This document shows, one piece after another, positions 732-49,265 of a stretch of DNA of 64,000 nucleotides; position 1 is the first letter of the stretch; each line of letters starts with the position of its first letter. The notes under the pieces were generated by a model. That model had not been told where the DNA came from, ran no database searches, and saw only the letters and a list, made by a program, of their open reading frames with translations. Where the stretch lies: NCBI GenBank assembly GCA_008632985.1, contig QPGO01000165.1, forward strand, positions 1 through 64,000, written 5' to 3'. The stretch is from Psammoneis japonica. Taxonomy: Eukaryota. Both the position numbers and the translations under genes were made by a program.

Positions 732-735
<4 letters not shown>

Positions 736-772: not shown

Positions 773-775
<3 letters not shown>

Positions 776-22300: not shown

Positions 22301-24126
22301 GATGGCTGGCACACACTCCAGGACTGGGTTTGGCGCAGAGGGGATGATTTCATTGACACAACACGTGAGGATGGGTGGGCAACATGTCGGTGCAAAACAA
22401 TTCATCAGGTGCGTGCATTGCGGCGTCAGTGCACAAACAGATTGGCCCTCTCACGCTGCTTGTGTGTCCTTCATGACAGTCAGCACCCATGACACAACAA
22501 ACACAGGATGCCACAATGTCCAGATTGTGGGAATGTCGGTCGTGAGCTCGGAGGTGGCAAAGAAAAAGTTCATGGATGGCCAGACAACCAATTGCGTTAC
22601 AACTGCGGTGCACCAAGGACAAAGTTCGTGATGCACGATGACATCAAGTTGGCCTTTGGGAGCAAAATGCAGAAAAAGGTTTGCAAGCACCTCAATGTGG
22701 ACGTGGGTGACTGTGCAGTTTGGTGGGAAGAGAACAAGGAAAAGGTGAGGAAAAGACTCAACAGGAGAAGAAACAACAGACAGGAGGCATTTAGAAAGAA
22801 GATGGTTGGCAAGTAAAATTCGGGAGGCGGGTTGATGAGGTGAAGCAGTGTTCTCACCAATTGTTTCTTGCTCAGAAATGGCTAAATGCGAGGGACTAGA
22901 AACAGTCAAAGACATCAAAAAGGGCAGGCGGTTGGCTCATGCTCACTTCTGGTTCTTGGAGAATTTCTGCTCAACAGCGGCGGGCATGGAATGCTGCAAA
23001 ACAGCAGACAACCAAGGTGTCAGCAACTGGCTGACAACAAGCATGGAAGCTTTTGCAAGGCTCATGTGTGACAACTGCTGCAAAATGGCCTTGTCAGTAG
23101 CAGAGGTCGAGGAGGAATTCGAAGATGACGGAGGGGCGCACCAAACGACACAACCCGTGGCCCCAAAATGCACTTTCCTGGGGAAAGGCACAAAACAAAA
23201 TCAAGGATGGAACCAGGGTGGGATCAAAAAGCACAACAAACTCTACGATGCTGTGGCGAAGGAGAGAGAACAGATTGCAGCAGAGTCGATGCACAGCACC
23301 TGCAAACAAAGAAATCGGAGAGCGCTCATGGCAAGAAAAGAAAAAAGAAAAAGAAGGACAGCATGAGCGGATGGGCTGCTCCAAAAGCTGATTGGAGCGA
23401 CAGCAAAAAGGAGGCCGCTGGAAGGAACAACGAGCAAGTGAACAAAGAGGAAGAGGAAGAGACTCCAGAAGCAGCAGCGACCGACAACAGTGCTTCGACA
23501 CAAACGGGTTCTCGACAAAGAGTGGTGAACAACAACACACAGAAGCAACACAGGGTGCAACGAGGAAACGGGTGGAACAACAGCGGTGTTCACCAGTGTG
23601 CAGCAGAAAATGACGGTGGCAGCGATGTTGACCACGAAATCCACTCAGTTCAGAAGCAGCAGCTGTGTTGAATGTGAAAAGCGTCCAAGTGTTGCACTGT
23701 AAAATGATGGGCATGTTGTCCGTGTGCTTGTTGGATTTAAAGCAAGGTTTGAAAGCAATGTGAATCGGGGGCTGTCACAAAGGCAAATTGTCACATGGTG
23801 AAAAGGGGGCCAGTGTTGCACTTGACAATGTCAGGAACATTCTCCGCATGGTTGTCACATTTAAATTTTCTGGTGTTGCATGACAAAAAAAAAACCAGAT
23901 GGAAAGCAAGATTTCTGCCACGGCATGCAAGAATTTTAAAATTAAATTTAACAAAATTCTGCCATGAAGGGCAAGAATGTCGCACGCAAGTTCGCGCGCG
24001 ATGTCAGATTGTTGCCCCACCAGACGCAATCACAAAAAAAGTGATTGTCCTGTGTTTGAGCCAGTTTGTTTCATGTGCAGGTTTTTGCTCTGAAATGTGG
24101 GAAGTGATGGACTCCCACCGCCATTG
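16349..24126 (+). repeat. Direct segmental duplicate of 1745-9519 (second, 5'-truncated copy of the Plavaka-like element, right end at 24043)
   Basis: Near-identical sequence at an offset of about 14.6 kb; junction at a GGA microhomology (1745-47, 16349-51). Confidence 0.95.
20118..21740 (+). pseudogene. Plavaka-type transposase, second copy
   Basis: Translation nearly identical to 5511-6779. Confidence 0.7.
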
Positions 24127-25008
24127 AGAAGCTTCTTTTACGTCGGTGAAAAGTTGGAAGCAATTTTCTGGACTCTCGAAAACAAGCTGCGATGCTCCTG
24201 CTGCTCCACCGCCACCACTCCCGCCACCGGGCACTGCTGCAAGTTCCCCACCACCTCCTCCTCCCGCTGAAACGAGTGCAGAACAACAAGAACAACCCAA
24301 AGACGCCATTGCGCTTGCGGCCGAGTCAGTCTCTGCTACAGCTCCAAACCCGGGCACTTGCGAAGAAGCCACGTTGGATTGCAAGCGTCTCGTGCAACTC
24401 GACACCCACGATGGCTTTCGCGTGGACATCAACAAGCAGCTCAGTCCCTTCATGGCGGTTGTGCATTCCTTTTGGCTCGGCACGTCCATGCTTCCCGACG
24501 GACGCAACCGGACCTGCACCTTTGTCATGCACGCAGCCGATGAACAGGGACTTCTCATGGCCCGTGTCGATCCCGAACGCGGCTTGGTCGATGGACGGAT
24601 CCATCGTGCGCTCTTGGGCGGGTTGGCCATGGTCAAGGTACAAGCCGGTCTAAGTGTGAGTGGTGAACACGATCAACTCTTGGCTGAACTGGACTTTGGT
24701 GGAGAAACGTGGAGGGGTGACCTCAAGTGCGGCTCCATGGGTGGGGGGCAAGTGTTTGGATGCAATTGCTTTCAGAGTGTAACAGACCGGCTCGCCATGG
24801 GAGGGGAGGGCATGCACCTTGCTGCGAATCAAAACATTCTTTCCAATTGTGCCGCCAAATGCACTGCGCCCGTCAGAACGGAGGACGGTGACGGCGGCGG
24901 GTCTAGTGCGATTTGTGCCAACTTCAACACGTCCCAGGGACTCTTGTTGCTCAATTACAAACGAGTCGTGACACCCAACCGTGTCACACTTGGAGCCGAG
25001 TTGGAGTG
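24127..25008 (+). pseudogene. TOM40: TOM40 fragment, truncated at both ends and TpA-hypermutated
   Basis: Corresponds to 10942-11823; lacks the ATG because of a deletion equivalent to 9520-10941; 7 of 8 Tyr changed to Cys/His; fused to transposon sequence at 25009. Confidence 0.9.
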
Positions 25009-28000
25009 GGTCGACACAGAGGAACAGCAGTAAAACGCAAGGGCGCTGCAGCAGCGTCTAAGGGCAAGCTTGCCCGAAAGCAAAAAGATGTGGACGCGGT
25101 CCCGGTCCCAGCGCCAAGCCCGATGAAGTCACAAAAAACACAGCATGCTGAAGCGGCTCTCGGTGCTGAAACGGCAGCAGCACAAGACAAAGCGTTGAAT
25201 CAGCCGGATGGTCAATTGATGCGTGGGTTGGGTTTTGATGTTTTTGAGTCAGAACCATTGGATGAAGGTGTTGCATTTGAACAAGACGGCGAAGGGAAAG
25301 AACTGCATGCTGAGAAACAACCAACCATCATTGCATCGTCAGCACCGGAGATTAATTTTGCCAAGAAGCATTTCTTGGAGTCTCTGCCAACTCAGTTGAA
25401 GCAATTGACAGAAGACAAGGAAGCAGCACAACTTTTGGACGAGTTGGCAAACATGGTGGCGGCGAAAATTCACTCCGCTGCCAGTGCAGACCCCAAAGTG
25501 AGTCCCGAGTCAATGTCGCATTGCTTTGAAATTGATGGAAAAGCGGGTGCGGAGTCAGCCGCACAAACTGTGCATCCAATGCAACTTCGTCACAATAGAG
25601 CTGTTTTGGATTTTGATTCTGTTGCAACAGTGCCTTTGGATGAAGAAGCCGCATTTAAATGCAAAGCAAATGGGCAAAAGCGCAGTGAAGCTGCGAAACG
25701 GCAGGCCAAGGCACGAGCCATAAAATCAATTGTGGACGCTGCACTCAACTCATCCGACAACCACAATGATCGCACTGTTGCCTTAGCGGGGGCACTTGCT
25801 CATCCAAAAATGTCAAGCATCACTGAGAATGTCAATCCAGTCACGCCGGAAACAAAAATGCTCAAAGACGCTTTCCAGCAGCAGCAACGAATGATCGAAC
25901 GAGCTAGTGTTACAAACAAATCCCGGGGTCGAACCAATGATGACAAACGTTCGTCAGTTGAGACTGTTCTAACATGCTGTGCCGATTCACCTGATAAAAT
26001 CAGAAAAGGAAACAGCTCTCTCCTGATTGAGACTCTTGGTTTGGCGAAAAGCACCGGGTGCCGAAACACAAAGAAGGCGAAAGCGAAACGTGCCGCACTC
26101 TCTTCGAATGCAAATGGTGTTTCATGGGCAAATGTCAAGCGTCGAAAGGGATTTTCTAAAGTCACACCGAAAATTCGTGAAGCACTTGTCAAATGGATTT
26201 TGGCACACCCCCAGGTTGTGCAATCGCCTGTCAAGGACGAGACTGCACCAGTGCAAAATCCTGACACAACTGGCGATGTTAAAAAAGTCCGTGTCCCAAA
26301 GTTGTTGCTCCAAGTGAGCATCCAAGAGCTCCACAATGATTTGACATCTGAGGAAGAACATGGTTTCAAGCATGCACGAGATGCTGATGGCAATGTCATC
26401 ACAAGTGACACTGCTCTACGTCATCTGCTCCCAGAGCAGATGTGCAAAATGTCGCCACGACACAAACAGATGTGCGGTTGCGAGTGCTGCATTGCAGTGC
26501 GGAGCCATCAGCAATCCCTCAACGCGTGGCGTCGTCGTCATTTACAAAAGCTGAAAGATGCGTCTCGTGATGAAACATTGCCCCAAGAGGAGAAAGAGAA
26601 ACCAGAAGTTCGTGCAACTGCACACAAGAGTGCGATGCCACCCAATGGGCAGCCACCACATTCCATGCCACGAGATGCAATTGCCGCCATTCAGTGCGAG
26701 GAAGTGGCTTCTGTGGGACACCTGCACTGGCGATGTGTCCTGGGAAAATGCCAAGATTGCCCCAAGCATGTCACTCTAGAAGAAGAAAAAGGTGCGGATG
26801 AGGCGAGTGCACCGCGGATTGACTTTCATGAATGTGAAAAGATGACCACGTGCACCATTCATGGCGTCCCACCAAACAACCCAAAGGAGTGCCAAGCATG
26901 CCAAGGGTTTGCGGCAGGAATGAAGCGGGGTGAGGTGCACAAGCGGAAGCACCTTGCCAAAAAAAACGCAACCATGGGCAAGTTTGCAAGGAATCATTGT
27001 GTCCCTTCTTTGGAAAAGCACCGATGCCATCGACCGCATGTCCGCATCCTCTCCAGGAATGGTTGCGGCGGCGAGCGTGAGCTGGCCTTTCAACGCGACA
27101 TCGGCTCTGTCAAGACAAGACGTGATTGTGCAGAACGACTCCCGGCCAAGTTCAACATGGAGATGCAGAGCGAACATTTTGGAAATGGCCGCTCACTTTC
27201 AATCGAAGGGAGCACTGTTGAAACCCATGCAGCCGAAGCAATTGCAAGTGGACAGATTGACAACGAACTGCCCCAATGAGACCGATTCCCTCTGCAGACT
27301 CACAGTCACTTTTCAGATGACTCACGCCAAGACGCATCCACTGCCCACGCCCACATGGATGAATTGTTAGATTTCCTGCTCAATCAAAAAAACGTAATGC
27401 AAATTCTTAAGATGCTGTGGGATGACACAGATGGGTGCTCAAAACAACATCGATGTGCCAAGGCATTTCTGCTGCTTACGATGTTGAGTTCCAAACATGA
27501 GATTGCTGTCGATCGAGCCATTGGTGCTCCTGAACATGGGAAAGACTTGGCAGATGCCATGAATGCGATGGACAAACGGCGCCTTGCCTCATGCATGTGC
27601 CTCATCGGAACTCCAGAGGCAAATGACAAAGATGCAAGATTGATGGCCGCGGAATCAATTGTTGACTTTGGTTTGAAGAGCCTTGCAGAGGAGTGCAAGA
27701 GGCTCTGTGAGCTGCCGACGAGAGTGCAGGGCGTCAAGGGTCACAAGAAGCATGCAAAACGAGAGGCAAATGCAAGAATGCAAGAGAGACACTGCCACGT
27801 GCAGAAGAAAGAAGACGCACCTTACACCAACATGGCCGTCAAGGCCCATTTCCCCGACGACTTGAAACACATGGAGTCCTGCAACCTTCGCACCGATTGG
27901 GAACTTGGGGTGGGTTGGATTGCGGTGCGCAGGATCCCGTGTGCCTGCGCTGGGTGCCTTGCTCAACTGGCTCTGGATTGGGTGCCAGGAGTGTCTCGAG

Positions 28001-28824
28001 ACAAGCAGCCTCGATGCAAAGGCGGAAACAAGGAGTGTGAGAGGTGGCCAATGTTTGAAGGATTGAACGATTGGCGCATCGCACCTTTGGTCCGGGTTGC
28101 CAACAAGCATGAGGCAGTAGAAGCTCTTTCTCAGCAAGAGCTTGAAGAGGCGCAGGATCATGTGCTGACAGGGATTGAAACAAGGATGGCAGAGGGGATT
28201 GCAGTTGGCAACAAAGGAGCGTTTGCGACAGAAGACGAGGAGACGAGTGGCCACCATGTTGTCGAATGGACTAGCGAAGCATGTGCACTACAGGATGACA
28301 AGGCACTCACCGATTTTGACCCTCCAGTGATGCTCAAAGCCGGCACACTTGTTGCGGATGCCACACATCTCAATCAGGTACCACGAGCCCCACTCTGGCA
28401 CACGCCATCAGCCATTTCCACCACTGTTGTTGCAAAACAGGTTGTCGCTTCACACCTTGATCTCCTTCCAATCTCTGAAGACAACCCTTTGCCACAGGGG
28501 TGCCGCAACAAGAGAGAAGCAATGGACAAAGGTGGGATGCAGGTGAAGGGCGAAAGCCACGAAGAGATCATTGAGGAACTGGCACATCGAGTTGCTCTCG
28601 ATCACGAGGAATTCGACGAAAATGAAAGCAGTGAAGATGAGGGGGGAAACGAGAGTGAGATGGAAGGTGATGATGACATTGACAACAGCAGCGACAGTTG
28701 GTTGCAGCACAATGTTTCACGAATGCAACTCACATTGGCGCGCGTCCTTGCATCACCTGCGCCCAGGTACAGAATGCAGTTCCGTTGCAGTGCTAAGAAC
28801 AAAAACAGCAGCACAGCCAATTGA
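25009..28824 (+). pseudogene. Large Cys-cluster DDD/E transposase (Sola-like), frameshifted near 27280
   Basis: Motifs CGCECC, RDCAER, QSEHFG..SIEG, WDDTDGCSKQHRC, EHGKDLADAMNA, RRIPCACAGC. The superfamily call rests on remembered motifs plus the 4-bp TSD of the related MITEs. Confidence 0.6.
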
Positions 28825-29900
28825 TGCCTTGCATCTGCCACAACATTTGCATCTGCATCAACATCCAACATCGCATCAACATCCAACGCCTTGCATGCAT
28901 CCACTTGCCTTGGGAGCAAAGAAAGGCAGAAACGTGCAGTGAGAGATGCCGCGGTGCGTGACGGGTGACAACGAAACGAACGCGTTTCTACAACACATGA
29001 GAACCCAATGATCACTCACCAGAACACTGGCCGGCCATTCCCAGCATCTGTGACTGCAGTCCCATCGATGCCCAATGTTTTACCTCTCTCTACTTTACGT
29101 CGTAATCGAGAGAGCGAAAAGGAAGAAACACGTCGCGAGAGACACACCACGGGTAAAAAACCAAAAGAACGCGCTTGCACAAAAACTAAGAACCCAACAA
29201 TCACTTGCAATCAGACTAGTTGACCGTGTCTAGACTCTGTTGCCACAGTCGTGTGCATGCCCAACGTCTTGCAACTCTACTCGAGAGAGTGAAAAGGAAG
29301 AAACACGTTGTGAAAGATGCGTGATGAACACGTGACGGGCGAAAAATCAATGGAAGGCGATGCGACAACAAATCAGAGACAACCACTTGCTTGCCAACAC
29401 ATCAATTCGACAAAAAAGCATCTGCAACTGCATCTGCATCAACATCCAATGTCTTGCAGTCTCTTCTTGTTGTGTGTGTGCACGAAACAGCAGAAAAAAG
29501 CGTCACATTGAAAGCAGCACAATTTCTTTGCTTCTTGCGCAGATTCAGAAATAGAAGCTGTTTGAAGCACTAAAACCGATGTGTCTCATGCGATGATGAT
29601 GCTAGAGACACATGAAAAGGATGGTCAACAAAAGACCAACGTAAAGACTGCTGTCATGGCCAAGAAGGCTTCGTCGCTGTTGGAGAATGCATGAGGCGAA
29701 TTTTTGCCAGGAGTGAGTCTTGGTTTTTGTTGACATCCTAAGTCACCAGGAGAACATTTCTGTCATTTTTTTATTCGTTTTGAATGCATTCATTAAGATG
29801 ATTTATTTCCTAAGATTCGGATGTCACATTTAAAAGAGCTCGTACGTAGGCTTCTACGGCCGAATGTCACACGGAGTCCCGCCTGGGGCTGGAACGCGTC
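25009..29900 (+). mobile_element. 5'-truncated Sola-like DNA transposon; probable partner of the MITEs at 38423 and 39110
   Basis: Right end gtcacacggagtcccgcctggggctggaacgcgtc (ends 29900) matches the MITE TIRs; carries a large DDD/E transposase. Confidence 0.7.
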
Positions 29901-30495
29901 TTGTCCTGTGTTTGAGCCAGTTTGTTTCATGTGCAGGTTTTTGCTCTGAAATGTGGGAAGTGATGGACTCCCATTGCCATTGTCACTTGTTTTGCGCTGC
30001 TGGCAAATTCAATGCCATCATCTCCTGCAGAGCTGTCTTCTCTTTGCACGTGTCTCTCTCTTGGAGCACAGCTGCACGAGGAATGCCAAGCCTTTAGCTT
30101 TCTTTGGTTTCTCTCATGTCTGGACCAATGGTGGTGCAATCAAGATGAGAGGAGTGTTGAAGTGATGGTGAGCATGTGGTTGGCACCTGCGCCATTTTTG
30201 CTCTCTGCCTTTGGTGTGTTGCACGCACGCCAGTGGCTGCCTGGCTGCGATGATGTGACAGCAACACTGGAGCACTTGACATGAATGGTTGCCATTGTCT
30301 GTACATTGCACTTTTGTCTTTGAAATGGATTGCTTCAGAGACCAGAAGAAGCAATGATGTGTTGTTTGTGCTTCCTCTTCCTTCAACAACCACAGGAACT
30401 CACTCGAGCGCAGAGAGCAAACACACAGACGTTCGTCGCGCAACTCGCGCGATGCCACGTCACGGCCGCTCCTGCAACACATCCATGACCCGTTA

Positions 30496-31220
30496 GACCC
30501 TGTCCAAACACTGTCACATGCATGATCATACCTGACATCACAGCACCTAAAATGAGCCTCTTCGAAAAAATCAGTGGTTGTCAGCCCTGTGCATGATGTA
30601 ATTTTAGGCCATGCCAACTTTCACGAGGATGTTTGTTCTCGCGAGAACAGACTTCCTCGGAAACATCATACCCCAACATCATGCCCCACCGACGAAACAC
30701 GAAAACAACTGACATGCATCGTTTTTTGACACGTCCAAAGTGCGTGTGGCTGTGCATCATATGAGGCAACCACATGAGACCATGCATGAGCCGCTTGTTG
30801 TCTTTGGGGGGCTTTGTGTGCCATTCTGGACTCTTCTGACACAACCATTTTGCCAAACAGTTTCTTAAAATAAATTCATGTCACACACTCTTACAGACAA
30901 CTGATTTAGCCATAAGTTGCACACAAGCATGATTTTTTTGTCAACAGGTGTCCATTGCATGGCTTGTTGTCGCCTTGTGGTTGCGTTTTCGTCGTCATGG
31001 TCATGTCGCTCTCGTCGTGTTGTTGTCGCTGGTTCATTCATGTTGCATCTGGTGTTGCTTCACGCACTGCAAGTTTGAATCATTCGATTAATGTCTGTGA
31101 GGTGCTGTCATGCGCACGAATGTGTTTGGACAGAACATTGTGGGCATGACCTGTGACGTCATCATAAAAGCCTGCGTGACGTGGGTGTGATCACACCTGT
31201 GACAGTGTTTGGACAGAGTC
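30496..31220. mobile_element. Second copy of the Harbinger-like MITE, hypermutated
   Basis: Same TIRs and TTA flanks as 10034-10758. Confidence 0.8.
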
Positions 31221-31383
31221 TTAGAAGAGTTCGGAGGTTCGAGTTCGAGCCGACGAGCAACGGTGGAGATCGATTGGAAATGAGGAGATGAGTGAGGACC
31301 GACGGCGTTTTGTCCATTGACTCTGTCCAGTGCACTCATCTCTTGTCGATGCTAAAGCCACAAGTTACACTGGTTGTACAAAA

Positions 31384-32505
31384 ATGGGAACGTCAACTTC
31401 CAAAGAAGCTTCTTTTACGTCGGTGAAAAGTTGGAAGCAATTTTCTGGACTCTCGAAAACAAGCTGCGATGCTCCTGCTGCTCCACCGCCACCACTCCCG
31501 CCACCGGGTGCTGCTGCAAGTTCCCCACCACCTCCTCCTCCCGCTGAAACGAGTGCAGAACAACAAGAACAACCCAAAGACGCCATTGCGCTTGCGGCCG
31601 AGTCAGTCTCTGCTGCAATTCCAAACCCGGGCACTTGCGAAGAAGCCACGTTGGATTGCAAGCGTCTCGTGCAACTCGACACCCACGATGGCTTTTGCGT
31701 GGACATCAACAAGCAGCTCAGTCCCTTCATGGTGGTTGTGCATTCCTTTTGGCTCGGTGCGTCCATGCTTCCCGACGGACGCAACCGGACCCATGCCTTT
31801 GTCATGCAAGCAGCCGATGAACAGGGACTTCTCATGGCCCGTGTCGATCCCGAACGCGGCTCGGTCGATGGACGGATCCATCGTGCGCTCTTGGGCGGGT
31901 TGGCCATGGTCAAGGTACAAGCCGGTCTAAGTGCGAGTGGTGAACACGATCAACTCTTGGCTGAACTGGACTTTGGTGGAGAAACGTGGAGGGGTAACCT
32001 CAAGTGCGGCTCCATGGGTGGGGGGCAAGTGTTTGGATGCAATTGCTTTCAGAGCATGACAGACCGGCTCGCCATGGGAGGGGAGGGCATGCACCTTGCT
32101 GCGAATCAAAACATTCTTTCCAATTGCACCGCCAAATGCACTGCGCCCGTCAGAACGGAGGACGGTGACGGCGGCGGGTCTAGCACGATTTGTGCCAACT
32201 TCAACACGTCCCAGGGACTCTTGTTGCTCAATTACAAACGAGTCATGACACCCAACCGTGTCACACTTGGAGCCGAGTTGGAGTGTTTGCCGTCAAGCCT
32301 AGAGTCACGGGTGGCGGTTGGAGCCAAATTCAAGCTGTCACGGTCCAAAATGGCTCTTTGTGCAGACGGAACGGGCAAGGTTCAAAGCACGTTGGAGGCA
32401 AAGCTTGGCATGGCACCGGGTTCGCCATCTTTGAACTTTTCGGCAGAACTGGATCATGCCAAGGATCAAATGAGGTTTGGATGTGGCATTGCGATTGATG
32501 GATGA
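31384..32505 (+). pseudogene. TOM40: Full-length but hypermutated TOM40 copy; ORF open, probably non-functional
   Basis: Same length as 10922-12043; 8 of 9 Tyr changed to Cys/His, several Thr>Ala, Ile>Met and Val>Ala changes; stop TAA>TGA. Confidence 0.85.
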
Positions 32506-33257
32506 TGCGACGAACCGAAAACGATGTTTGTGCTTTGGTTAAAACACGCATGATGCTGAATTGCCAGACAATCACAGTTTTGTGAGGGCAGTGCATCGCG
32601 CATTTCAATCATTAAAATCAAAATTTAAGAATTTCTTTTTTCCGCATGAGACTGTTGTTGCCACATCACATGGCAATGCAGCAACATCTTTTTGCTTGTT
32701 CGAAAATGGCTTGACAATCAATTGACAATTGAACAGCAAACAAGCTTGGCTGCATGTTGTTTTCTCTTGCGACAAGAACGGGCGTGATGCTGCTGATCAT
32801 TGTCACAGTGCAAGACTTCTTGTTGACTTGTTGGTCATCGTGCTCCTCATCCAGAGCTAAAGCCAATGAGGCCCATCGTCTTCCGACTGTGAAGTGAACT
32901 ACACGAAAGGGCCCAAAATCCGGGTCTCTCTTTGTACATTGTTTGTGCGTAAATTTGCATTCAGTCGAAATAGATGCTGCAGCAAAAATTTCTTAGAAAA
33001 AAGGAAATTTGCTTGTTCGAAGCCATTCTGTGAAATTGCTGAATCCTTCGGGGTTTGCCGGCGTGCACAGTGGCGGGCTTGCGCGTGTGTCACTTCAAAA
33101 CTCGAAAGCATTCGCTTCGACAATGAGAAAACAATGAGAAACTTGCTTTGCGACGGCATGTTTTCTTTCTCCAGTGACGGCAACAACAGAAGCTTTTTCA
33201 TTCTCTGTCACACCATGTAACCTCGTGTTTTGATTCTAATCCTTGAAAAGCTGCATC

Positions 33258-35630
33258 ATGGGTCGTCATCATCATCCTCGTTACGATCGTCGTTCTTCCT
33301 CCAGTGCAATTTCTTCTTCTTCTAGCACATCTTCCTTGTGCCACCGTCTCGATCAAGCGCTCCATCCTCCACGATGGTCCAGCACGAGCAGCAGCGGCAT
33401 TAAAAGTACAAGCAAAATTTCGTTGCGTTCCTCTCATCATGGCCGCATGCGTCGTCAACAACGTGCGTCATCCAAATGCGAGCTGAAACGAGCCATCAAG
33501 TGCGGTCAGCGTCGAGTGCTGCCGGGAAGAAGAAGGCTCAAATGTCGATTCAATGGTTCAGTGGTTGTTGTTGATGGATGCACAAAAACGGAAATTACAA
33601 GTTACAAAGAAGTGATGGACGCTGATGCACCGTTTCAAACCATTTGTCCAGAGCAACGGAAATGACATGACGATGCTCGCAAACTCAATCAGCAAGAGGC
33701 ATGTTTGAACTGTGCACAACATGAACACATGTCGTAAGTTGACCAAACCAACAGAACAAGACAACTCATGTTTGCTTTTTGTTTTCCATCTATGCAGCCA
33801 CGACAATGCAAGAGCCACTCCATTTTGCTCATTGACAAGAGCGGATCGATGCACACGCCGGACGTGCAGGGTTGCAATTCTTGTCTTGCTTCTGTGTTTT
33901 TAGCCATTGCTCAAGACTTTGTCCGTCCTCGCATTGACGCAGCCGGACGAGGGATGCAGGGTGCCATTTCGGTGATGATCATGGGCGAACGACCCTTTTT
34001 ATGGATGAATGCGTGGCCCACCGACTTTGTCACGTACAATGCCTTTGTTGCGGCATTCAAGCATGGTCATGTCCAAGCCGAGGGACATTGCTGCTGCCGA
34101 CCATCAATTGACACGGCTCAAACAATCTTTGACCGACACGACTCTGCCACGTGTCAATTGGTGTTGGGAATCTTTGCCGATGGACGACCCAGTGACTCGT
34201 CCGTGTTCAAAACCAATTGGGACCAATCGGTCCAATCCATTTCCACATCCGTTCAATCCATGGCAGCCAAGATTGGCAACCGATTGCAAATCCGAGCCAT
34301 TGGCATGGGATCTGCCAATCAATGGCAAACGCTGGATGCTGTGTGCCAAGTGGCTCGCAATTGTGGTTGTCAAGCGCAGGTGGAAACACCCAGCATGTCC
34401 TCGTCCAGTCTAGGTGCCGTGGTGAGCAGCATTGCAACGTCGCTTGCCACGTCACAAGTTGACAACCATGGTTCTTCTGATGATGGCGTCAATCGTGTCG
34501 TTCGACCGGTGCGTCGTGAAGACCGATCTCGTGTGCCGCTCTTGACGGAAGCGGTGGATGCTACGGATTTTGACATTTTCATGCAAGACAAGGTGGTTCG
34601 GGAAGAACACATTGGAGGAGATGCCTTTGTGCAAGCTGAGTTGCAACACCCGGAAGCCCGCGGTGTTGCAGTGCGCAAACAACCCTTTGATGAAGGCAGC
34701 GAACGGTTTGCCTGTCAATTCTTTGAAGTTGCACAAGACGGACGAACCGTCGTTGGAATGCCGCTGGTTGCCAAGGCGTGCAAATTTGTTCTAAACAATG
34801 ACAAGGATGAAGACGACGGTGGTGTGTCGTTGGAAGAGTACACGCACAAGTTTGTGACACGCTTTTGTCGTATTCATACCGTGGCAACCCAAATAGCAAA
34901 TGCCTTTAATGAACGGTTGGACAAGATTGCGCGTCTCGATTCGAGCGTGCCGCGTGTCGAGTTTCTACCCTGTTCGGTCTATCGTCTCGAGCACGACGAC
35001 GGAACTACGTCTGCCTATGTGGTGGAGCCTCGTCTCTTGGGAAGTTTCAAAAGTGGAATAGCAACAATGGGTGGATTCGTGAACGCAGTACAAAGCCATC
35101 ACCAGTGAAATCGATGGGCATCTCTTGTGGTGGTGGTTTGGTCCCCATCAAGGAAGAAGTAGACGAAGAAGTGTTGAACGAAGAACCCATGGACAAAGAA
35201 GAGGAAAAGTAGGAATCATCCAGTATGGATGTTGCCATGGATTCATCAGGTAACGCTGTGATTGATTTAACCACAAGCGACGACGATGACGAGGGCGAGT
35301 GCTTGTTTGTGCAGGGAGACGATGTTGCCCAGGCCTTTTCTCACTTTAGCTATTCGCTAGAACGCCAGAAACTACTCGTGTGTGACTTGCAAGGTGTCTA
35401 TGATCGTCAGGAACTTTTGCTTCGTTTCACAGATAGATCCCGTCATTCACCACGTCGTCTACAAGGAAACCGAGGGTGCAGCAAACAAACGTGGCAGCAG
35501 CAAGTACGGACGAACCGACCGTGGTAACAAGGGTATTGCTGACTTTTTCGATACGCATCCATGCAATTGCCTTTGCAATATAGTAACCAAGGGTTTTCTT
35601 CCAGTCAAGACTACGAATTTTGAAAAGTAA
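33258..35630 (+). pseudogene. Second vWA/alpha-kinase copy
   Basis: Extra stop at 33663-65, 1-bp indels near 35038 and 35440, same internal TAG. 5' part TpA-mutated, 3' part not. Confidence 0.85.
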
Positions 35631-36010
35631 GTCAGATCAGAGTTGCAAGACAAGCACAGCCAACTTGCGAGATTGACGCAAGGTCGTCCTGAGATATCAA
35701 ACCGGGGAGTCAATACTCGCATGTCTAGATGGATAAGGTGCTTACTCTCTGGAAAGACTTTATCAGCAGAAAACATCTGCGTGCGTAGCTTTCCACTGGC
35801 CATTGCAACTACCATACGATTTGAGAGGCTCCGTAGCTACAAGTATCCGATAATAGCTCTACCTCTTGTCTACTGTAATCTTTGTCAGTTATTCTGATCA
35901 CGAGATCCCGCCAAAAGAAAGGTGTGAGTAAAAATTCGACAAGGACTTTTTTTGAAAGAAACAAAGTAAAGTAAAGCAACTCATTCGATTGTGAATGCAA
36001 AAATCGATTA

Positions 36011-38202
36011 TTATAGGGAATACGCATATGCAGACCCTGATGAATCACCGTTGATGCCACCGAATTGGGCCCCTACTCCAAGAACGGTTCCATTTGCGGA
36101 CAAGGATACGGACCCTCCAAATTCATCATTTTCAGCCTCACCATTCAATGGATCGCCCACTTGACTCCATTCTTGCATTTCAGGATGGTATTGAAAGACT
36201 ACAACTTGACCTGCGTCAACGAGTCCATTGACATCATGCCAAACACTTCCAACAGCCAACGCATTTGCGCTTCCACTCAACGACACGGACCAACCAAAGA
36301 CATCACCCGATTGTTGTGTGCGAAGGATTTGACCACGTGTTGTCTACAAGGACGTGGAATTATCGTACTGATAGACCACGGCATACCCATCATTTCTATT
36401 TGCACCTCCTGCCACAATGTGACCCGTGTCATCAAGAGAAAAAGACCATCCAAACTTATCAAGAGCGCCAAGGCCGTAGATTGGATCCCCCATTGATTGC
36501 CAAGAGGATAATGCTGAATTGAATTGGTAAAGTTGAACCTGATTGGTATTATCGCCGCCCATTGCAACAACGGTTCCCGAGCCACTAACGCTAACAGAAA
36601 AACCATACTGAGCATCTTCTTCTACGCCAAGAATTGTTTCTCCAAGTTGGTTCCAGACAGATGATCCGGCATTGTACTGAAACACTTGAACTGCTCCCGA
36701 TCCCCTTCCATTGATCGTGTCGGCCCATCGTACCCCAATCGCAACAACGTCCCCTCCATTCGACAACGAGACGGAACAACCAAACAACTCACCGCCACCT
36801 TGGCCGAGAAGGACACTACCGCGCTGGACCCAACGATCCGTGTTGGCATTGTACGCATAGAAAACAACATAACCAGCTCCATCATCTACACTCATTTGAT
36901 GTGCTCCGATTGCCACAACGGTGCCGTCGGCATTTAATGATACGGAGTCACCACCGTGTGCCGCCAAATCTTGACCCATGGGCGACAAGGAGTTTGCATT
37001 GGAGTCGATTCGAAAGACAGACACACAACCGGAATTGCCGTCATTGTGTGGTGCTCCTACAGCCATGACTGTTCCGTCTCTGGAAATGGCAACAGATGTG
37101 CCAAAACCATCATTCGGAGATTTACCATGCAAGGCTTGTGCCACAGGTTCCCATGGACCATTCGGAAGCAAACCGCTTTCTGTTGGAGAAAGTGTTGGGG
37201 AGTCCGTTGTCGGGGGCTGCGTTGGGGACTTAGTCGTTGGGGATGGAGTTGGATCGAGAGTCGTTGACGTGGGAGTCGCACTGCCGGTTGCTGGAGGCAG
37301 CATGGGCGCCGAAACTGGTGTTTGTGTGGTGCCTCCAGACGAAAAAGAAGAGAAAGAAACCGCAACATTAATGGCCACAACAGCGGGCACGAGCACGACA
37401 CCTGCTCCCCATGTGATGCAGCACCTGCGACGTTTCCTCTGTGCTTCCAGCTCGAGAGCACTGGTGTTGTCTTGATTCTCTGGATGATTCGTGTCTTGGG
37501 GAGGTGCTGATGTTGTAGCAGCAACCACTTGAGCCACCTGAGCTCCCTCAACAGTTTGCCTGAGCCGAGTGTCTCTTGTTCAAGCCAATCCATCGAATCG
37601 GCATCTGCCAAATGAGCAACTGTGACTGGAGTGCTGTCATTGCGATGTGCTGGTGATGGTGGCGGAGGCATGGCACCACTTGCAGTTGGGTCGAGATCGA
37701 AAGGGACTGTGCTGATGTTGTCTGTGTCGTGTCTTGTTCGAGGAACCATCCCACCGCCTTGACCAACTGCAACTGCGCCCACCATTGACGAAATTGGCAA
37801 ATCCTCTTGCACTCCTCCCCTTTGGGCAGGCCGCATGGGCATGAAATCCGCATTGTCTGTTGGAGGAGGAACAGTCGCCTGGTGATTCTCATGGATCCTT
37901 TCCAATTCTGAAACATGATGCGCGTCAGGATGTCGACTCGCCGTGGTTTTGTTCTCTTTCCATCCTGTCCTGGAGGTGGGCACACTGTGATTGTGAGCAA
38001 GTTGATTGCCTGAACTCAAAGCTTGCTCTTGATGACGGTGAGCGTGACACTTCTCGTTTGGGCCTGCAACTGGTTTTTCCATCGTTTCTTCCTCTGCAAT
38101 CACTTCATCGGTGTTGTTGTGGTTCCTTCTTCTGCCACCACGCCTGTTGCACATGTCGTCATCACCCATTGCGGGCGGAGGCTTGTCGGGATGGCGGTTC
38201 AT
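36011..38202 (-). pseudogene. Single-pass membrane protein with a PT-rich stalk and FG-GAP-like beta-propeller repeats, disrupted
   Basis: Disordered N-terminus, RKRRR followed by a hydrophobic segment, PTPSPT repeats, multiple FGxSVS(L/I)SxxG..VAVGA repeats. Frameshift near 37540 and in-frame TAG at 36344-46. Confidence 0.75.
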
Positions 38203-38422
38203 TGTGATGATTCTTTGCACACTGAGCAAAAAGTGCAAAGCCCAGAAAGAGAAAGCGAGCTCCGACCCTTGAGCTCGAGTCATCATCGCATCAGCCAGCA
38301 AACACAACCTGGATGTTAAAGTGTGGAGAACTGACACCTGGCTGCACAAGCACCCATCGCCGAAGGCAGCTGCACTGAAAGACAAGGAACAAAATGAGAA
38401 GAAAAGTGCAACATGCAGACAA

Positions 38423-38812
38423 GACGAGTTCCAGGTCTAGGTGGGACCTCGTACTACTGAACTGTGACATCGATGGTTTTTTGAATCACGTCGTATGTCG
38501 CGCACGTAGATTTCTACGTGATTTTTTTGATATTTTGTGTCATTTTACGGTACACTTATTGAGCGATCCGTCCAACAACTTTTGACATTTCTTGTTACAG
38601 CGCGATTCTATAATGTCTTAAGAATCGCGTAGGGCAGGCGCATTTGCAAAAACGTCGAGTGGTAAGAGGCATAATTGTACCACAAACTTGGCCGTTTATT
38701 TGATGTTGAAGATAAATATATCCATTAATTAAATTCTCGTACTACGGAGCTCGCACGTAGAATTCTACGGGCCCAATGTCACACGGAGTCCCACCTAGGG
38801 CTGGAACGCGTC
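38423..38812. mobile_element. MITE of the Sola-like family, 390 bp
   Basis: TIRs gacgagttccaggtctaggtgggac and gtcccacctagggctggaacgcgtc; 4-bp TSD ACAA on both sides; subterminal near-palindrome cacgtaga.ttctacg at both ends. Confidence 0.85.
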
Positions 38813-39109: not shown

Positions 39110-39954
39110 GACGCGTTCCAGCTCTAGCTAGTAGGTGGGACCTCGTACTACTGGACTGTGACATAAATGTTTTTTGTCATCCGTCGTATGTTTTGCACGT
39201 ACATTTCTACGTGTTCTATTGTAAAAAATTGTTCCACACTGCCTCTTTTGCGAAGCCAAAGGCTTTCTGTTTTCTACATTTATGACAATAAAAATGCGCT
39301 GGGTACATTCTTTAATGTCTAAAGAATATACAGTACCCCGGCAAACTATAAATAACGTACTTCAAGTTTGGAGGAGGAGATACGTTCGCAAAATAGCCTC
39401 TACAGGCCTCGCTGATCTAATCGGCGCGGCGTAGCGCGCACATCTAGTGTTTATTGTTTTTCGTATTATTTTCGCGAGATTGTATTGTTCACGAATAGAA
39501 ATAATATTATTTCTATATTTGACCGTAAACATAGTGTTTATTATCTCCATAAATAAATTCCGTTAGAGGAAAAGACACGTAGGACATTTTCTTTTATAAG
39601 CTGATGACATCATAATACATAAATTAATTAGGCCGTCGACGGGGTGTTAGGCATTCTGACACAAGCATAAGCCCAGAATGACTCCTATGTCGTCATTGAT
39701 GACGTAAGTTCAAACCACACTAAATGTTCGAATAAAAGTTACCAAAAATGCATTTGTCACATTTCTTCGTCGATAATGTCTAACGGATAAGTAATCGTAG
39801 GAATAACAAATAATAAACACTAGATCGGCGACCCCTGTATTTCTGTTGGCGATCATTCACATTTGCATTGCTTAACAATTTTACTACGGAGCTCGCACGT
39901 AGAATTCTACGGGCCCAACGTCACAAAAAGTCCCACCTAGGATTGGAACCCGTC
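39110..39954. mobile_element. MITE of the same family with a nested insertion, 845 bp
   Basis: TIRs gacgcgttccagctctag..gtgggac and gtcccacctaggattggaacccgtc; 4-bp TSD ACAT on both sides. Confidence 0.85.
39403..39837. mobile_element. Nested Tc1/mariner-type MITE with TA flanks
   Basis: Left TA|caggcctcgctgatcta..gtgtttatt, right aataaacactagatcggcgacccctg|TA. The left TIR has an insertion of about 27 bp. Removing this element returns the host MITE to about 410 bp, close to its 390-bp sibling. Confidence 0.7.
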
Positions 39955-41078
39955 ACATGATGAGCTGCACAAAGAGAAGCAAATCAACTTGGCACAGCCT
40001 TGGCCAGGGTGGTGGCTCAAGAATGCACACAGTTGCCTGTGGGGCACCAAGCAGCACAGAAAAAGCAACAAGAAGTTTGTCAGCGGGGCGAGCTGATGAT
40101 TTTTCACAAGTGCCATCACCAAGCTGCACTCAAGGACAAGGAACAACAACAATTTGTGAAGCAAAGTGTGGTGCACAGACAAGGAGTTTGTGCAGAAGTG
40201 GTGTGTCCAGCAGCCACAGTGCTGACAGCTGCAGGAAGCAGAGCAAAAGAAGCCAGGCAGGGTGGCACCATGTGTGCCAGCTCTTGTCACAGACAGCCCT
40301 GTGCGCTGCATCTTGAAGAAACAGGTTGAAGAGATGAGTGAGATGCCAAAAAGGAAAACTGTGAAACTGTTTTGGGTGCCAAAGCAAACTGTTGAGATGC
40401 TCTGCAGCACCACCCAGCAACAGCTCATTGCCGCCCCTGCACCAAGCCAGCTGAGAATCAGTGCATGGACTGCACAGTGTTCTCAGCACTGCTTTGGGGT
40501 GTGACCCAGTTGTTGTTGAGAGCTGCATCACAAAAAACTGCCTCAGTGCACTTGTCGCTGAATCTCCAAGCATGTGAAACAGCTGGAGCTTGCTGCTGAT
40601 GACACTTGTTTGCTGCTGCATGCTGCTTCTGTCAAATGAGAGCACATGCAAGTGTGTGCTCCATGACCTCTTCACAGAGCTGGAAATCATCTTTGCAGCT
40701 TTGGCACAGAGCTCCCAGCAGCACAGTGTTTTGCAGAAGCACCAAGATCACAAGCAACAGCAGCAGCAGCTCTGTGCACTCTTGGAGCAGCAAGCAGCCA
40801 GAGCAACAACAAAAAGAAAAGATGAGTGGAGCAGAAGTTCACAGGCGTGCAGCATCTGAGGTGGCCAGAAATGATCTCCAGCATCACGCACCAGTGCAAG
40901 GTGGGCAGCACCAGCGCAGAAGCAGAGAGGGCAAGAAAATGAGGGCTTGTTTTTGTGAGAAAAAACAAAGGTTTGCTTTTGTGAGGATGGCATGAGCAAA
41001 GTCAAGAAGCCACACAGAGAGAAGCAAGCCAACTTTGGTGTCTCTAGAGCTGCGGCAGCTGCCGGCATGGAGAGAGCA

Positions 41079-44000
41079 CAGCTTTCCCTGCAATCAAACA
41101 AAACGCCGTAGAATTTGTGCAGGACATGCCAGATTTTTGTGACGTGTCCACTTTGACGTCATCACAGTGATCTTGAAGCACGAGAAAAAGCACGAGACAA
41201 TGGCGCTGGTGGAATCGGCGTTTTTTGTGGTTTTGCTGCTGAGTCCTCTCTGATCCCCCTGTACAGCTTGGTGGCAAACACCCATCAAAATGTCACAAGG
41301 CAATGCGATCAGAGCGTCTCGGTCAACACCGACTGGCATCATCACTTTGCATTTCAGGGATGCGTGCAAGATGCCGAAGTTCCAGTGCAGATGGATCGAG
41401 GCGAACTGTTTTGTGCATGTGACAAGAGGCCTGTGCAATTGACAAAGATTTGAACTTAAATGCCAAGAAGTTGAACAGTGCATTGAGCAGAGTTGGGTCT
41501 CCATTTCCAGACATTGACAAGGACACGTCTGAGAATGATGGCGGGGTTTTCCGAAAGCAGTTCCGACCGAAGGGAGAGCCGTCCATTGTGGCGCACTGTG
41601 CCTGCAAAGAGCAAGAATTGCCAAGGCATGTGCCCTCAACAATCAATGATCCCAGGCATGTGATGTTGACTGTTGAAGAGTGCAACAAGAAAGTAGAAAC
41701 TCGAGCCGGCTCCAGCAAGAGAACAGTGGGGTATGACGCAAATGAGCATGCACAGACGTTGCAGGAAAACGAGCGAAAGAAAAAGAAAAGGAAAGAACTG
41801 CTAGAGTCCTCTGCAACAGAGGCAAAATCATCCAATGATGGTGGTGCTGATGAAGATGATGCTCCTGAGAATGATGCCATGCCTGCCGATGATTTGACCG
41901 CTATTGTTGGCACCTTCTGGGATGACACGACCGTGCGGAACCTGTTCAATGCAGATGATGGAGAGGATGCAAAAAAGGCAATTGAGAAACAGACAGATAA
42001 ATTGACTTCTGGATTTGCTTTTCATGATGGATGGAAAGAAGTGATCAAAGGAGGTGACCCTGACAACCTGTGCACACCCAACGATGCTCATGTGATTCGA
42101 TTGAGATGCCAGCATCTTGCGATCGTGCTTGACCATGCGTTGAAGAAGCTGCCAAAAAGGAACACTGCATGGCTTGACTGCTGTCAGCATGCAATCGATG
42201 ACCTCAGCGGTGCAGGTGTTAACTTTATAAAAAGTCGCCAAACCGCAGCTGCTTGGTGTCGCATCTTTGGGAATCTCAGTTCCTTTCCTCATCCCCGACC
42301 AAAAGGAAAAGGTGACCCACCGACATTTGAAGCACATCCAAAGACGAAGCGGAAATTCATTGAGTTCATGACAGCAAACCTTTCTCGACTTTCCACTGAG
42401 GTGGCCACAGACCACTTCCACGAAGTGCTTGTCCCGGAATTCTTAAAGAGAGAGAACAATGACCGTCGCAAGAACGGGGAAGACATCTTGGAGTCGGAAC
42501 GGGAGTTCCTGAATCAGTGTGGATTGCTCACCGGGGAAAACCAACCATGCATTTCTTCCAGTGCAGTTTCCAACTGGATGAATCTGTTTGGTTTCCGGCA
42601 TGGACCAAACAAAAAGATGAATTGTGTTGACAATCATGAACGTCCCGACAATGTGAGGTGTCGGAATGCGATGGTCCGTCGACACTTGATGATGGAAGAA
42701 CGATGCCCACGTTGGATGCAACTTCCAAAAGCCGCTGCCATGGACCTTGTTGAAGCTGAAGCTCTCCCAGCAAAAATGGGGCATGAATGCCAAGTCGATG
42801 GAGAAGATTTTATCGAGTGTCATGTCGATGCTGTCATTGACCCGGAGCATCCAAGCCTTGTGCCCAAGCTGTCCGTGCAATTTGGAGGAAGTGAAAGTGT
42901 GAGAAAGGATCCGAATGTAAAGCCTGTCATGACATTTGGACAGGACAAGGCTGTTTTTAAGCAATGCTTGCCAAGCACAAGCAGCTGGTTGGGTCCCAAA
43001 GGTGAGCGGCCGCTGCTGCCCAAAGATGATGGAGAAGGCGTGATGCAGTCTGCATTTCAATGTCGAGAGGTCGGCCTTGTTCGAGATGGAGACATTTCGG
43101 AAGAGCGGCTCCGAGAGATGAATGAAACTTGAGCAGGCAAATGCTGCAATGATGAAGACGCTGCAGAAACAGCATTCAGCAAGAAGCAGCACAAGCCGAA
43201 GTTGAAGAAAAGTCCGTTCATCCACGAGTTCGAGTGTGGAGCGAACAGCGACGGATGCTGGAATTATGACCACATGTTGGTGCAATTGGAGGATTGCGTG
43301 GATTGCTTGAAAGTGCTGCATCCTCAATTTGACTGTCGTTTCCTTTTTGATCATTCTTGCGGGCACAACAAGCAGAGAGCAGACGGACTAATCTGCAACA
43401 AGCGCACGATGAACGCAGGAGTCGGCGGCAGTCAGAACAAGATGCATCCCACTGAGATTCTTCAGGCAGAGAGGGCTTTCTAGGTCCTCATGCTGAAGCA
43501 GTTGGTGTGTCATCTGCAGGACAAGTGCAAACAATGGCATTCAGTGAGGAAGACCAGGGACCACACTGGATGACGCCGGAAGAACGAGAAGCTGAGAAAT
43601 GTGACGCACCTGTTGAGGGTCAAACTGAAACTCGGAAGTTCCTGCGTGATGAAATTTTTGACAAGCTTCTACAAAAGAACATCAAGAATGTCAGGGGCAA
43701 GAAAAAGGATGAATTGATTGACACAGCAAAGAGCAACAACACACCTGTCGAAGAAACCATTCAAAAGGTGAAGCACGGATGGGTCAACAAGCCGAAAGGA
43801 TCAAAGCAAATTTTGCATGAGCGAGGATGGATTGATCCCAACAACCCTGGAAAATGCACTGTGGATGGCACAAAGGGCAAAGATGGAGAGATCGATGAGT
43901 CAACATCTCTTCTTCACTTGATGGCTGCTTGCAATGATTTCGTCAACGAAGAGACGTTGTTGCAAACCATGGGTCGCAAAGTGGGTGTGACCATTGATGG

Positions 44001-44523
44001 AACGCCAAAGTGTCACCCAGAAATGGCTGGGGAGGGCATTGAACATTCTTGGGGACTCGCAAAGCAGCATTGTCGTTTGCAACCTTTGTCAAGAAAGAGG
44101 GGAAAGCAAACTTTAGAGAGTTGGTGCGAGAATCAATGTCATCAAGCGCACTCACGACTGACAGGATGCGAAAGTTCTCGCGACGAGCACGACAATGCAT
44201 TTGTGCTTGCATGGTTCTTTCACAACCTGATGTGTCTCAAGAGGTTCAGCATGAAGCCTTGTCTCTTGAGACCATTGAAAAGCTTGTCAAAGAGTTCAAA
44301 ACGCACCGCAGTGCGATTGATTTTGACAAGGGTTTCATTGTGAGGACGCTTTTCGCGGGGTGAAAAGACATTTTTTGCAGGTAAATAAAAAACTTAAGAA
44401 TATAGATAAGTTTTATATATAACGCTGCTGGCGATTTTACTGTGGCTTTTTGTATGAAAAATAAATTTTCCTACCAGTAACGTAGGATTCATACGACGTT
44501 TAGGTTGGTTGCAGGGAAAGCTG
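41079..44523 (+). mobile_element. Tc1/mariner-IS630 superfamily transposon, 3445 bp
   Basis: TIRs cagctttccctgcaatcaaacaaaacgccgta and tacgacgtttaggttggttgcagggaaagctg; right flank TA, left flank CA. Confidence 0.85.
41450..44363 (+). pseudogene. IS630/Tc1-like DDE transposase with stop and frameshifts
   Basis: Motifs VDNHER, GQDKAVFKQ, LLPKDDGEGVMQSAF, FLFDHSCGH, PKGSKQILHERGW, TPKCHPEMAGEGIEHSWG. Confidence 0.8.
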
Positions 44524-45033: not shown

Positions 45034-45315
45034 TAGAGTAGAGAGTGAGGGCCCTCTAGAGCTAGAGAGTGAGCTAACCCGGAGACCGATCGAGCGATCT
45101 ACGATGCAAGCATGACGTCAGCATTACCCATCCTGACGACCATTCCAAAAATTACACAGTAAACAACTGAATGACCTCGCCTTCAACCTTCTTTCCACCG
45201 TGCATTTGCAATCAAACCTCATCGGCTTGTTTTGCGGTTGTCAGTACATTATTGTCGACACAACCTCACAACTCCTCTCTGTGTGTTTCTCGATGAAAGA
45301 GACATAGACGGAGAC

Positions 45316-49120: not shown

Positions 49121-49265
49121 GGTTAACAATAGTAATCCGATGCAAAGTGATGATTGCGTTTCTGGCATCTGTTTCGCAGCAAAATAAGATTTTTCGGTAA
49201 AGATTTCATGCTCGTGGCTGGTTAACGATAAGCCCATAACCCAATCTCTTTGTCTGACTTCGAGC

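Follow-up and report, generated by a model that had tools for sequence, protein, structure and literature searches.

What process removes the dinucleotide TpA from one copy of a duplicated gene segment and leaves the other copy untouched? The question is raised by a window of 64,000 nucleotides from the diatom Psammoneis japonica (contig QPGO01000165.1 of GenBank assembly GCA_008632985.1, positions 1 to 64,000 of the forward strand), the window being the whole stretch of DNA that was analyzed. Self-comparison of these 64 kb shows a 14.6-kb unit duplicated in tandem (Table 1). Both units have a repeat part and a gene part, and Pfam identifies TOM40, an alpha-kinase/VWA gene, and the 3' end of an FG-GAP gene in the gene part of unit 1. 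In unit 2 the two parts are separated by a 5.8-kb insertion, which starts with an 882-bp fragment of TOM40 (frag3 below). Most TpA sites have disappeared from the first 4.9 kb of the second gene copy, as TpG or CpA. We propose that this is the result of region-targeted, TpA-specific A:T>G:C hypermutation acting on silenced transposon-like DNA and on an adjoining redundant gene segment, a reading that we consider fairly probable.

Substitutions between the two gene copies

Between the gene parts of the two units there are 181 substitutions, and 122 of them turn a TA of copy 1 into TG (66) or CA (56) in copy 2, as against 7 in the reverse direction. CpG is changed into TG or CA at 24 further positions (2 in reverse), a pattern that fits the decay of 5-methylcytosine (5mC), and 26 differences fall into other classes, 4 of these being transversions. 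With six exceptions, all substitutions are confined to copy-1 coordinates 9520-14251. The hypermutated tract of copy 2 has lost 119 of 170 TpA sites, 64 as TG and 55 as CA, so that both strands are affected; one further site reads CG, the only double change among the 170, and another reads TC. Counted per strand-site, A>G is found at 121 of 340 adenines after T, compared with 2 of 747 after A, 10 of 767 after C, and 1 of 606 after G, which gives an odds ratio of 90 for T against the three other contexts (Fisher P = 5e-97). C>T at CpG amounts to 23/548 in the tract, vs. 0-1.3% in other contexts. The unaffected 2-kb part of the gene copies has diverged by only about 0.3%, and a TpA loss of about 70% therefore represents a local excess of at least a few-hundred-fold. 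A very different spectrum is seen in five metagenome pairs of related transposon copies, in which 26-50% of the changes are transversions and 8-14% are of the TA type, in both directions.

Within TOM40, the two copies differ by 33 substitutions. Among the 31 TpA sites of copy 1, 24 are lost (16 by A>G and 8 by T>C), and the remaining differences are 8 CpG transitions and 1 other change. These figures exactly reproduce the hand counts of an earlier reading of the window made from its letters (the sequence-only reading). That reading had described a targeted and directional hypermutation of TA to TG or CA accompanied by CpG transitions, and had argued that deamination of 5mC cannot yield A>G; the counts over the whole gene part bear it out on each point, with A>G dominating after T.

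The direction of the changes can be read from outgroups. The best named relatives of TOM40 are all diatoms, the top match being 73% identical. At the 26 residues that distinguish the two TOM40 copies, 18 diatom outgroups match the residue of copy 1 302 times and that of copy 2 21 times. Eight tyrosines of copy 1 have become Cys or His in copy 2, and most of them are invariant across the 18 outgroups. The tyrosines of a transposase-like open reading frame (ORF) elsewhere in the window tell the same story, since at the 10 conserved Tyr columns of its family the ORF keeps none (4 are now His, 3 Cys, and 3 others), and it retains 4/4 conserved Asp, 11/13 Gly, and 7/8 Trp. Together with frag3, this shows that TA, rather than TG or CA, is the ancestral state, and agrees with the earlier remark that tyrosines of conserved motifs turn into Cys or His.

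The third partial copy of TOM40 gives some insight into timing. Over the 25 TA sites that frag3 covers, 7 are changed in both frag3 and copy 2 with different outcomes (CA in the one and TG in the other), 3 are changed in only one of the two, 10 are changed identically, and 5 are unchanged. One transversion and two CpG changes relative to copy 1 are likewise found in both. Since they have some changes in common and differ at 10 TA sites, frag3 must have split from the copy-2 lineage after the onset of mutation. Both appear to have kept mutating after the split, and the process would thus act in many rounds. The repeat parts of units 1 and 2 differ at 60 sites. CpG decay, in both directions, accounts for 35 of these and TA-type change for only 4, so TpA had been lost there before the duplication.

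Target motif, extent, and borders

The base that follows the adenine has a strong influence. In the tract, the A>G rate is 0.50 for TAC and 0.49 for TAT, but 0.19 for TAA and 0.13 for TAG. The target motif is T-A-Y (Y, pyrimidine; R, purine), and the palindromic RTAY is the most affected: loss reaches 49/56 at RTAY, 63/83 where TAY is present on one strand, and 9/31 at YTAR. The most sensitive sites are the palindromes ATAT and GTAC, along with ATAC/GTAT. Because a pyrimidine 3' of the A is so strongly favored, RTAY is erased first and YTAR last. The same order is found in the old TpA-poor blocks of the window, where RTAY occurs at 0.18/kb vs. 12.58/kb in normal DNA, and YTAR at 2.68 vs. 6.92. 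Relative to normal DNA, this leaves 1.4% of the RTAY sites, 10% of the one-strand sites, and 39% of the YTAR sites in the older blocks, with TTAA as the most resistant site (54% surviving). Along the tract, no strand-coordinated clusters of TG or CA outcomes were found (runs test P = 0.91 for all sites and 0.08 for RTAY).

The TpA-poor blocks were delimited by a two-state segmentation of the window. Seven such blocks make up 44.9 of the 64 kb, i.e. seventy per cent. All seven combine depletion of TpA, with an observed/expected ratio (O/E) of 0.07-0.17, with enrichment of TG/CA (O/E 1.45-1.72), which is the long-term footprint of such a process; their CpG O/E is 0.37-0.86, and their GC content is slightly higher than elsewhere (0.49-0.50 vs. 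0.46-0.47). The sequence-only reading had listed transposon bodies as nearly TpA-free and had called PEPC, FKBP, and the first TOM40/kinase copy normal. As far as TpA content is concerned, both statements hold: calculated per kb, the O/E of TpA lies at 0.0-0.2 in its listed blocks and at 0.47-0.87 in the gene regions, with PEPC (45297-48637) and FKBP (48866-49282, minus strand) situated in normal-TpA blocks.

Within the tract, the fraction of TA lost is 0.4-0.8 in each 500-bp bin. The last lost TA lies at 34713, and from 34792 to the end of the duplication none of 76 TA sites has been lost, although many of them are RTAY. The border is therefore resolved to <80 bp, and it falls inside the alpha-kinase coding region, with neither an insertion nor a deletion. 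In the island that follows (34792-36941), two genes converge with just their 3' ends, their 5' parts being hypermutated. The idea that this island was copied from copy 1 by gene conversion was considered and rejected, since the normal TA density extends 128 bp beyond the end of homology at 36813. A search for tRNA genes or Rfam families as border elements found none.

Several short repeats are also present. A conserved element of about 65 bp, with the 14-bp palindrome CGTAGAATTCTACG, occurs in three copies (29836-29900, 38747-38812, and 39889-39957). In two cases it coincides with the left edge of a TpA-poor block (at 29856 and 39939). The element's own TA sites are kept, and it may represent a border element or the end of a transposon. 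An 82-bp repeat end is found three times (9438-9519, 24045-24126, and 29901-29982). The bin that contains it has a k-mer depth of 6516 in run X1, and it is therefore a high-copy piece in the genome. Self-comparison also reveals short tandem repeats at 59000-59214 (period of about 70 bp), 1273-1519 (about 122), 49257-49393 (about 54), and 56747-57015 (about 144), as well as an inverted pair of about 300 bp whose arms are 74-79% identical (49216-49602 and 63680-64000). One arm closely precedes the TpA-poor block beginning at 49827, and the other is in the TpA-poor block at the window end.

Table 1. Coordinates of the duplicated units, TOM40 copies, TpA-poor blocks, and open reading frames in the 64-kb window
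Feature	Position	Strand	Description
Unit 1	1745-16351		TpA-poor repeat part 1745-9519 and gene part 9438-16351
Repeat part of unit 1	1745-9519		TpA-poor; 99.2% identical to 16349-24126
Gene copy 1	9438-16351		Unmutated, ancestral reference; TpA O/E 0.56; outgroups side with copy 1
TOM40 copy 1	10922-12043	+	Intact, 9 Tyr; Pfam Porin_3; 393 homologues
Unit 2	16349-24126, 24127-29900, 29901-36813		Repeat part, 5.8-kb insertion, and gene part, respectively
frag3, third partial TOM40 copy	24127-25008	+	Hypermutated independently; 18 TA losses vs. copy 1
Gene copy 2	29901-36813		97.3% identical to 9438-16351; hypermutated in first 4.9 kb only
Hypermutated tract	29856-34791		Upstream region, TOM40 copy, intergenic stretch, and 5' part of alpha-kinase copy; TpA O/E 0.17
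TOM40 copy 2	31384-32505	+	ORF open; 26 amino-acid changes; Tyr 9 to 1; stop TAA to TGA
TpA-poor block	1-10031		TpA O/E 0.07, CpG O/E 0.37
TpA-poor block	16270-29080		Unit 2 repeat part and insertion with frag3 and 1,305-codon ORF; TpA O/E 0.10
TpA-poor block	36942-38437		Covers 5' part of FG-GAP gene region; 6 TA in 1.5 kb
TpA-poor block	39939-44381		Holds transposase-like ORF; TpA O/E 0.07
TpA-poor block	49827-57899		TpA O/E 0.08
TpA-poor block	60931-63999		Runs to window end; TpA O/E 0.09
1,305-codon ORF	24907-28824		One in-frame TGA; about 0-0.4% Tyr
Tyr-free 459-codon ORF	37060-38436	-	In block 36942-38437
Transposase-like ORF	41423-43129	+	Large unnamed eukaryotic family; 1026 homologues at E<=0.001

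Known systems, mechanism, and rival explanations

The closest parallel comes from the chlorarachniophyte Bigelowiella natans. Two viral regions integrated in its genome are reported to mutate about 1000-fold faster than the remaining genome (bioRxiv 10.64898/2026.01.13.699255), and in these regions 230 of 231 mutations recorded by Illumina sequencing of mutation-accumulation lines are A>G or T>C, all on TpA (Mettrop et al. 2026). According to the same preprint, the larger region, derived from a nucleocytoplasmic large DNA virus (NCLDV), is single-copy and transcriptionally silent, activity is seen in some lines only, and the genome holds 124 clusters depleted in TpA and enriched in CpA+TpG, in which DDE and RT domains and unannotated ORFs are overrepresented (bioRxiv 10.64898/2026.01.13.699255). 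The diatom gene pair likewise shows almost only A>G or T>C changes, with 122 of its 181 substitutions being TA>TG/CA, and they fall on TpA in discrete regions accompanied by TpA-depleted blocks. These blocks are sharply bordered, and a foreign origin is indicated for two of them only. By analogy, the diatom process is probably the same as in B. natans; the locus would then belong to this newly described kind and add a second, distant lineage, a stramenopile beside a member of the Rhizaria. There are also differences. The B. natans mutations were seen arising in real time, whereas those of the diatom are deduced from paralogues. Depletion is much deeper in the diatom, with the O/E of its blocks to be set against a Rho of 0.45 given for the B. 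natans NCLDV region. Beyond what the main text of the preprint describes, the diatom locus has a duplicated host gene as a target, a preference for a 3' pyrimidine and RTAY, CpG decay, and a border resolved to <80 bp; the words “diatom,” “trinucleotide,” “context,” and “CpG” are absent from that main text (bioRxiv 10.64898/2026.01.13.699255). The sequence-only reading knew of no description in diatoms, and none was found in the literature searched, so in this respect it stands; the signature itself, however, was described in 2026 in B. natans.

The comparison with repeat-induced point mutation (RIP) sets the limits of another analogy. Under RIP, both copies of a duplication are mutated, stop codons arise, and the DNA becomes AT-rich. 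As in Neurospora and other ascomycetes, the diatom shows dense, dinucleotide-specific transitions in repeats that reach into adjoining DNA, and a role in genome defence is plausible. The RIP direction is CpA to TpA (cited in bioRxiv 10.64898/2026.01.13.699255). The diatom process goes the opposite way, as the sequence-only reading had recognized: rather than C:G>T:A at CpA, TA is lost 122 times and gained 7 times, GC rises slightly, no stops are created, and only one copy is affected. The same reading had also spoken of a repeat-associated “reverse-RIP” candidate, which is not supported if a homology trigger is meant. That duplicated DNA is recognized by homology, in a true mirror of RIP, is most improbable here. 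It is the case that the cleanest example lies in a duplicated segment and that a third partial copy is affected too, but copy 1 is spared, as are the last 2 kb of copy 2, so mutation does not extend over both copies along the duplicated length; in addition, the hypermutable NCLDV region of B. natans is described as single-copy (bioRxiv 10.64898/2026.01.13.699255). Since mutation has left the other copy of the duplication intact, it is place and not homology that sets the target. This place is probably a silent-chromatin domain, because the tract shares its raised CpG decay with the adjoining repeats, and a redundant gene copy next to repeats could be silenced without cost.

The A of 5'-TA-3' is converted to G on either strand, giving TG or CA, and a single change removes the target. 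In the mechanism that we propose, silent chromatin would recruit an enzyme of the deaminase fold, ADAT2/TadA-like or other, that deaminates adenine to hypoxanthine in DNA. We advance enzymatic adenine deamination as the chemical step only tentatively, although it is the candidate that we prefer. The tRNA adenosine deaminases act on A34, which follows U33, and the TadA context is U-A-C; TadA/ADAT-like enzymes have a deaminase fold with an HxE...PCxxC motif. The U-A-C context matches the T-A-C of the diatom tract, with the difference that TAT is affected as often as TAC, and the T-A-Y context is compatible with TadA/ADAT-like action on T-A-N. The B. natans authors, who themselves propose adenine deamination and name an ADAT2 homologue as a candidate, cite the editing of both A and C in DNA by the ADAT2 of amphioxus, and of C by that of Trypanosoma (bioRxiv 10.64898/2026.01.13.699255). 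APOBEC3/AID and 5mC decay are also enzyme- or modification-driven sources of context-specific transitions that damage mobile DNA, but they act on C and cannot give A>G. The search for an enzyme is constrained by the motif (TAY/RTAY), by the absence of strand runs, by the sharpness of the border, and by the association with CpG decay.

The attacked base may also be another one. In the main rival scenario, which we find unlikely, a TET/JBP-type dioxygenase would oxidize T at R-T-A in silent DNA to 5-hydroxymethyluracil (5hmU) or 5-formyluracil (5fU), and mispairing with G or faulty repair would lead to T>C. We know of no report of 5hmU in diatoms, a point at which no search was specifically aimed. 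As RTAY is symmetric in the duplex, the attacked base is indistinguishable by sequence, and in dinoflagellates 5hmU is described as preferentially replacing T in TA and TC, as enriched on transposable elements, and as marking and silencing them (PMC11572971; PMC11071213). It is thus an algal base modification with a TA preference that is found on repeats and silences them (PMC11572971). However, it is a modification and not a mutation, and TC is also its target, whereas in the diatom tract TpC is unaffected (T>C before C at 1/606); the 5hmU mapping reported for B. minutum found no sequence motif (PMC11071213). The decay of a modified adenine is a rather doubtful candidate as well. Here, a methyltransferase would put N6-methyladenine (6mA) on both strands of RTAY in silent DNA, and the marked A would become G through enzymatic or spontaneous deamination or through miscopying, much as CpG decays at 5mC. 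The most sensitive sites are indeed palindromic, as expected of a symmetric DNA-modifying enzyme, and CpG decays within the same tract. What speaks against it is the location and non-mutagenicity of 6mA, since in eukaryotes this mark is described at ApT near active genes and not at TpA in repeats, and to our knowledge it is not mutagenic towards G. Finally, error-prone synthesis by a Pol eta-like polymerase, or ADAR-like RNA editing followed by reverse transcription, would both yield A>G with a 5' T preference, but we give either of them very little credence. Pol eta mutates A after A or T (the WA motif), and ADAR works on double-stranded RNA with a preference for 5' U or A and for 3' G. In the diatom, ApA is changed at 2/747 sites vs. 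121/340 for TpA, which makes the Pol eta-like option of the sequence-only reading a poor fit. A 5' A is likewise unused, and TAG is the least favored triplet, the opposite of the ADAR 3' G preference. The tract is also colinear genomic DNA that includes intergenic parts, is affected equally on both strands, and ends in the middle of a gene. The preference of ADAR for 5' U is cited in the B. natans preprint (bioRxiv 10.64898/2026.01.13.699255).

It must also be asked whether the letters themselves can be trusted. A base modification in repeat DNA could lead a long-read base-caller to report TG or CA in place of TA, an error that polishing might not remove; methylation-linked miscalls are likewise strand-symmetric at one motif, and at some copy-2 positions the only contig of run X1 is a copy-1-like one. 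We nevertheless judge an artefact to be very improbable. Run X1 contains 0.70 of the sampled 31-mers of gene copy 2, and the share of these 31-mers found elsewhere in the window is 0.554, so copy-2-specific words are present in the X1 contigs; 95 of the 238 X1 contigs aligned to the window match at >=99%. Double errors giving CG are found at one site only, frag3 and copy 2 differ at the same sites, and a locus from another metagenome (L025, below) carries the same signature. For B. natans, the Illumina mutation-accumulation data are presented as showing that the process is real (Mettrop et al. 2026).

Several points weigh against the proposed hypermutation of silenced DNA. Among the sequencing runs listed, a single sample (X1-X3) and no RNA run contains the stretch. 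This sample may be the assembly's own source, and X1 provides support rather than independent proof. Its contigs drop variants (they are bubble-popped), which hides many copy-2 letters, and the presence of two copies is not clear from the depths of its collapsed and copy-specific contigs. Only one X1 contig covers 31649-32285, and at 16 positions it reads like copy 1. Two haplotypes may have been misjoined in tandem, although this would leave the mutation pattern unchanged. Spreading heterochromatin does not usually end so sharply in the middle of a gene. In most TpA-poor blocks no transposon domain is recognizable, so “transposon” or “foreign” is not established for all of them, and word-index protein searches found no homologue for two of their long ORFs. 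The proposal also depends on sequence, which cannot separate deamination of A from modification of T. Separately, the X1 contig over 31649-32285 agrees with copy 2 at three differing positions (31962, 32092, and 32217), and this mixture suggests a further TOM40 allele or copy in the sample.

Coding content and consequences of TpA loss

Pfam scans covered 16 + 94 ORFs, and in the approximately 100 long ORFs belonging to TpA-poor blocks they found no transposon or viral domain, giving sub-threshold chance matches only. Comparison of the blocks by tblastx and blastn found no family common to them, and no long terminal repeats, terminal inverted repeats, or target-site duplications were found in the blocks; the sequence-only reading had spoken of eroded TA target-site duplications. 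They do contain ORFs of 450-790 codons that are almost free of Tyr. TGA is nearly the sole stop remaining, yet even so these ORFs are far longer than chance would be expected to give. The family of the transposase-like ORF has motifs that include GQDE and DHSxGH, and the ORF probably encodes a DNA-transposon protein. A search of PDB sequences with the family profile gave only spurious matches to Huntingtin. For the 1,305-codon ORF, a language model suggests DUF7869, which may serve as a lead, and the word-index protein search found no homologue of its part 24907-27276, nor of the Tyr-free ORF on the minus strand (Table 1). A transposon nature thus appears to be supported for the block with the transposase-like ORF, and suggested for the block with the 1,305-codon ORF.

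The transposase-like family also allows a look at other organisms. Among 80 metagenome loci that encode it, 77 have a TpA O/E of 0.48-0.81. The TpA-poor ones are L025 (7.2 kb, O/E 0.27; positions 1-6500), L067 (0.18), and part of L029 (4001-7471). These metagenome contigs have no DNA similarity to the window, and the SPAdes-style contig names would imply short reads. In L025, RTAY occurs at 0.46/kb vs. 16.65/kb in 76 other loci, and YTAR at 7.2 vs. 9.3. This is again the hierarchy RTAY > TAY > YTAR, so the process seems to occur in other organisms. The spectrum of the pair L046/L067 (88% identity over 471 bp) is uninformative, as 23 of its 56 differences are transversions. In public data, Tyr is below 1.5% in 5 of 150 homologues of the family (P0123, P0140, P0158, P0201, and P0208), the median being 4.1%.

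The effect on coding sequence is peculiar. When TA changes to TG or CA, TAG becomes TGG or CAG and TAA becomes TGA or CAA, so that no stop codon can arise. As stops are not created and TAA and TAG are removed, inactivation must come from the loss of TA-rich signals and from missense changes such as Tyr to Cys or His. TOM40 copy 2 and the transposon-like ORFs do remain open while losing Tyr, which explains the long orphan ORFs and the failed Pfam and homology searches. Gene finders will call the long ORFs of dead elements as orphan Tyr-free proteins, and homology searches fail on them; TpA O/E can serve as a simple genome-wide marker of the targeted compartment.

With the same 4.9 kb present side by side, once intact and once hypermutated, this locus is a natural experiment. 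If the process is real, diatoms, which are among the most important algae, have a mutational genome defence that is opposite to RIP, and the B. natans phenomenon is then widespread. More speculatively, and with the low confidence that so broad a claim allows, it could be an ancient defence of diatoms and chlorarachniophytes, perhaps of the whole SAR group (Stramenopiles, Alveolates, and Rhizaria), in which a natural DNA adenine editor recognizes the palindromic RTAY in silenced foreign DNA and rewrites it to TG or CA. Elements would end up dead and without Tyr or TATA, yet with their reading frames open. The editor would be of technological interest and, if this holds true, the first natural adenine base editor with chromosomal DNA as its substrate. 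A shared defence of this kind would also explain many of the orphan tyrosine-less “genes” in protist genomes and metagenomes.

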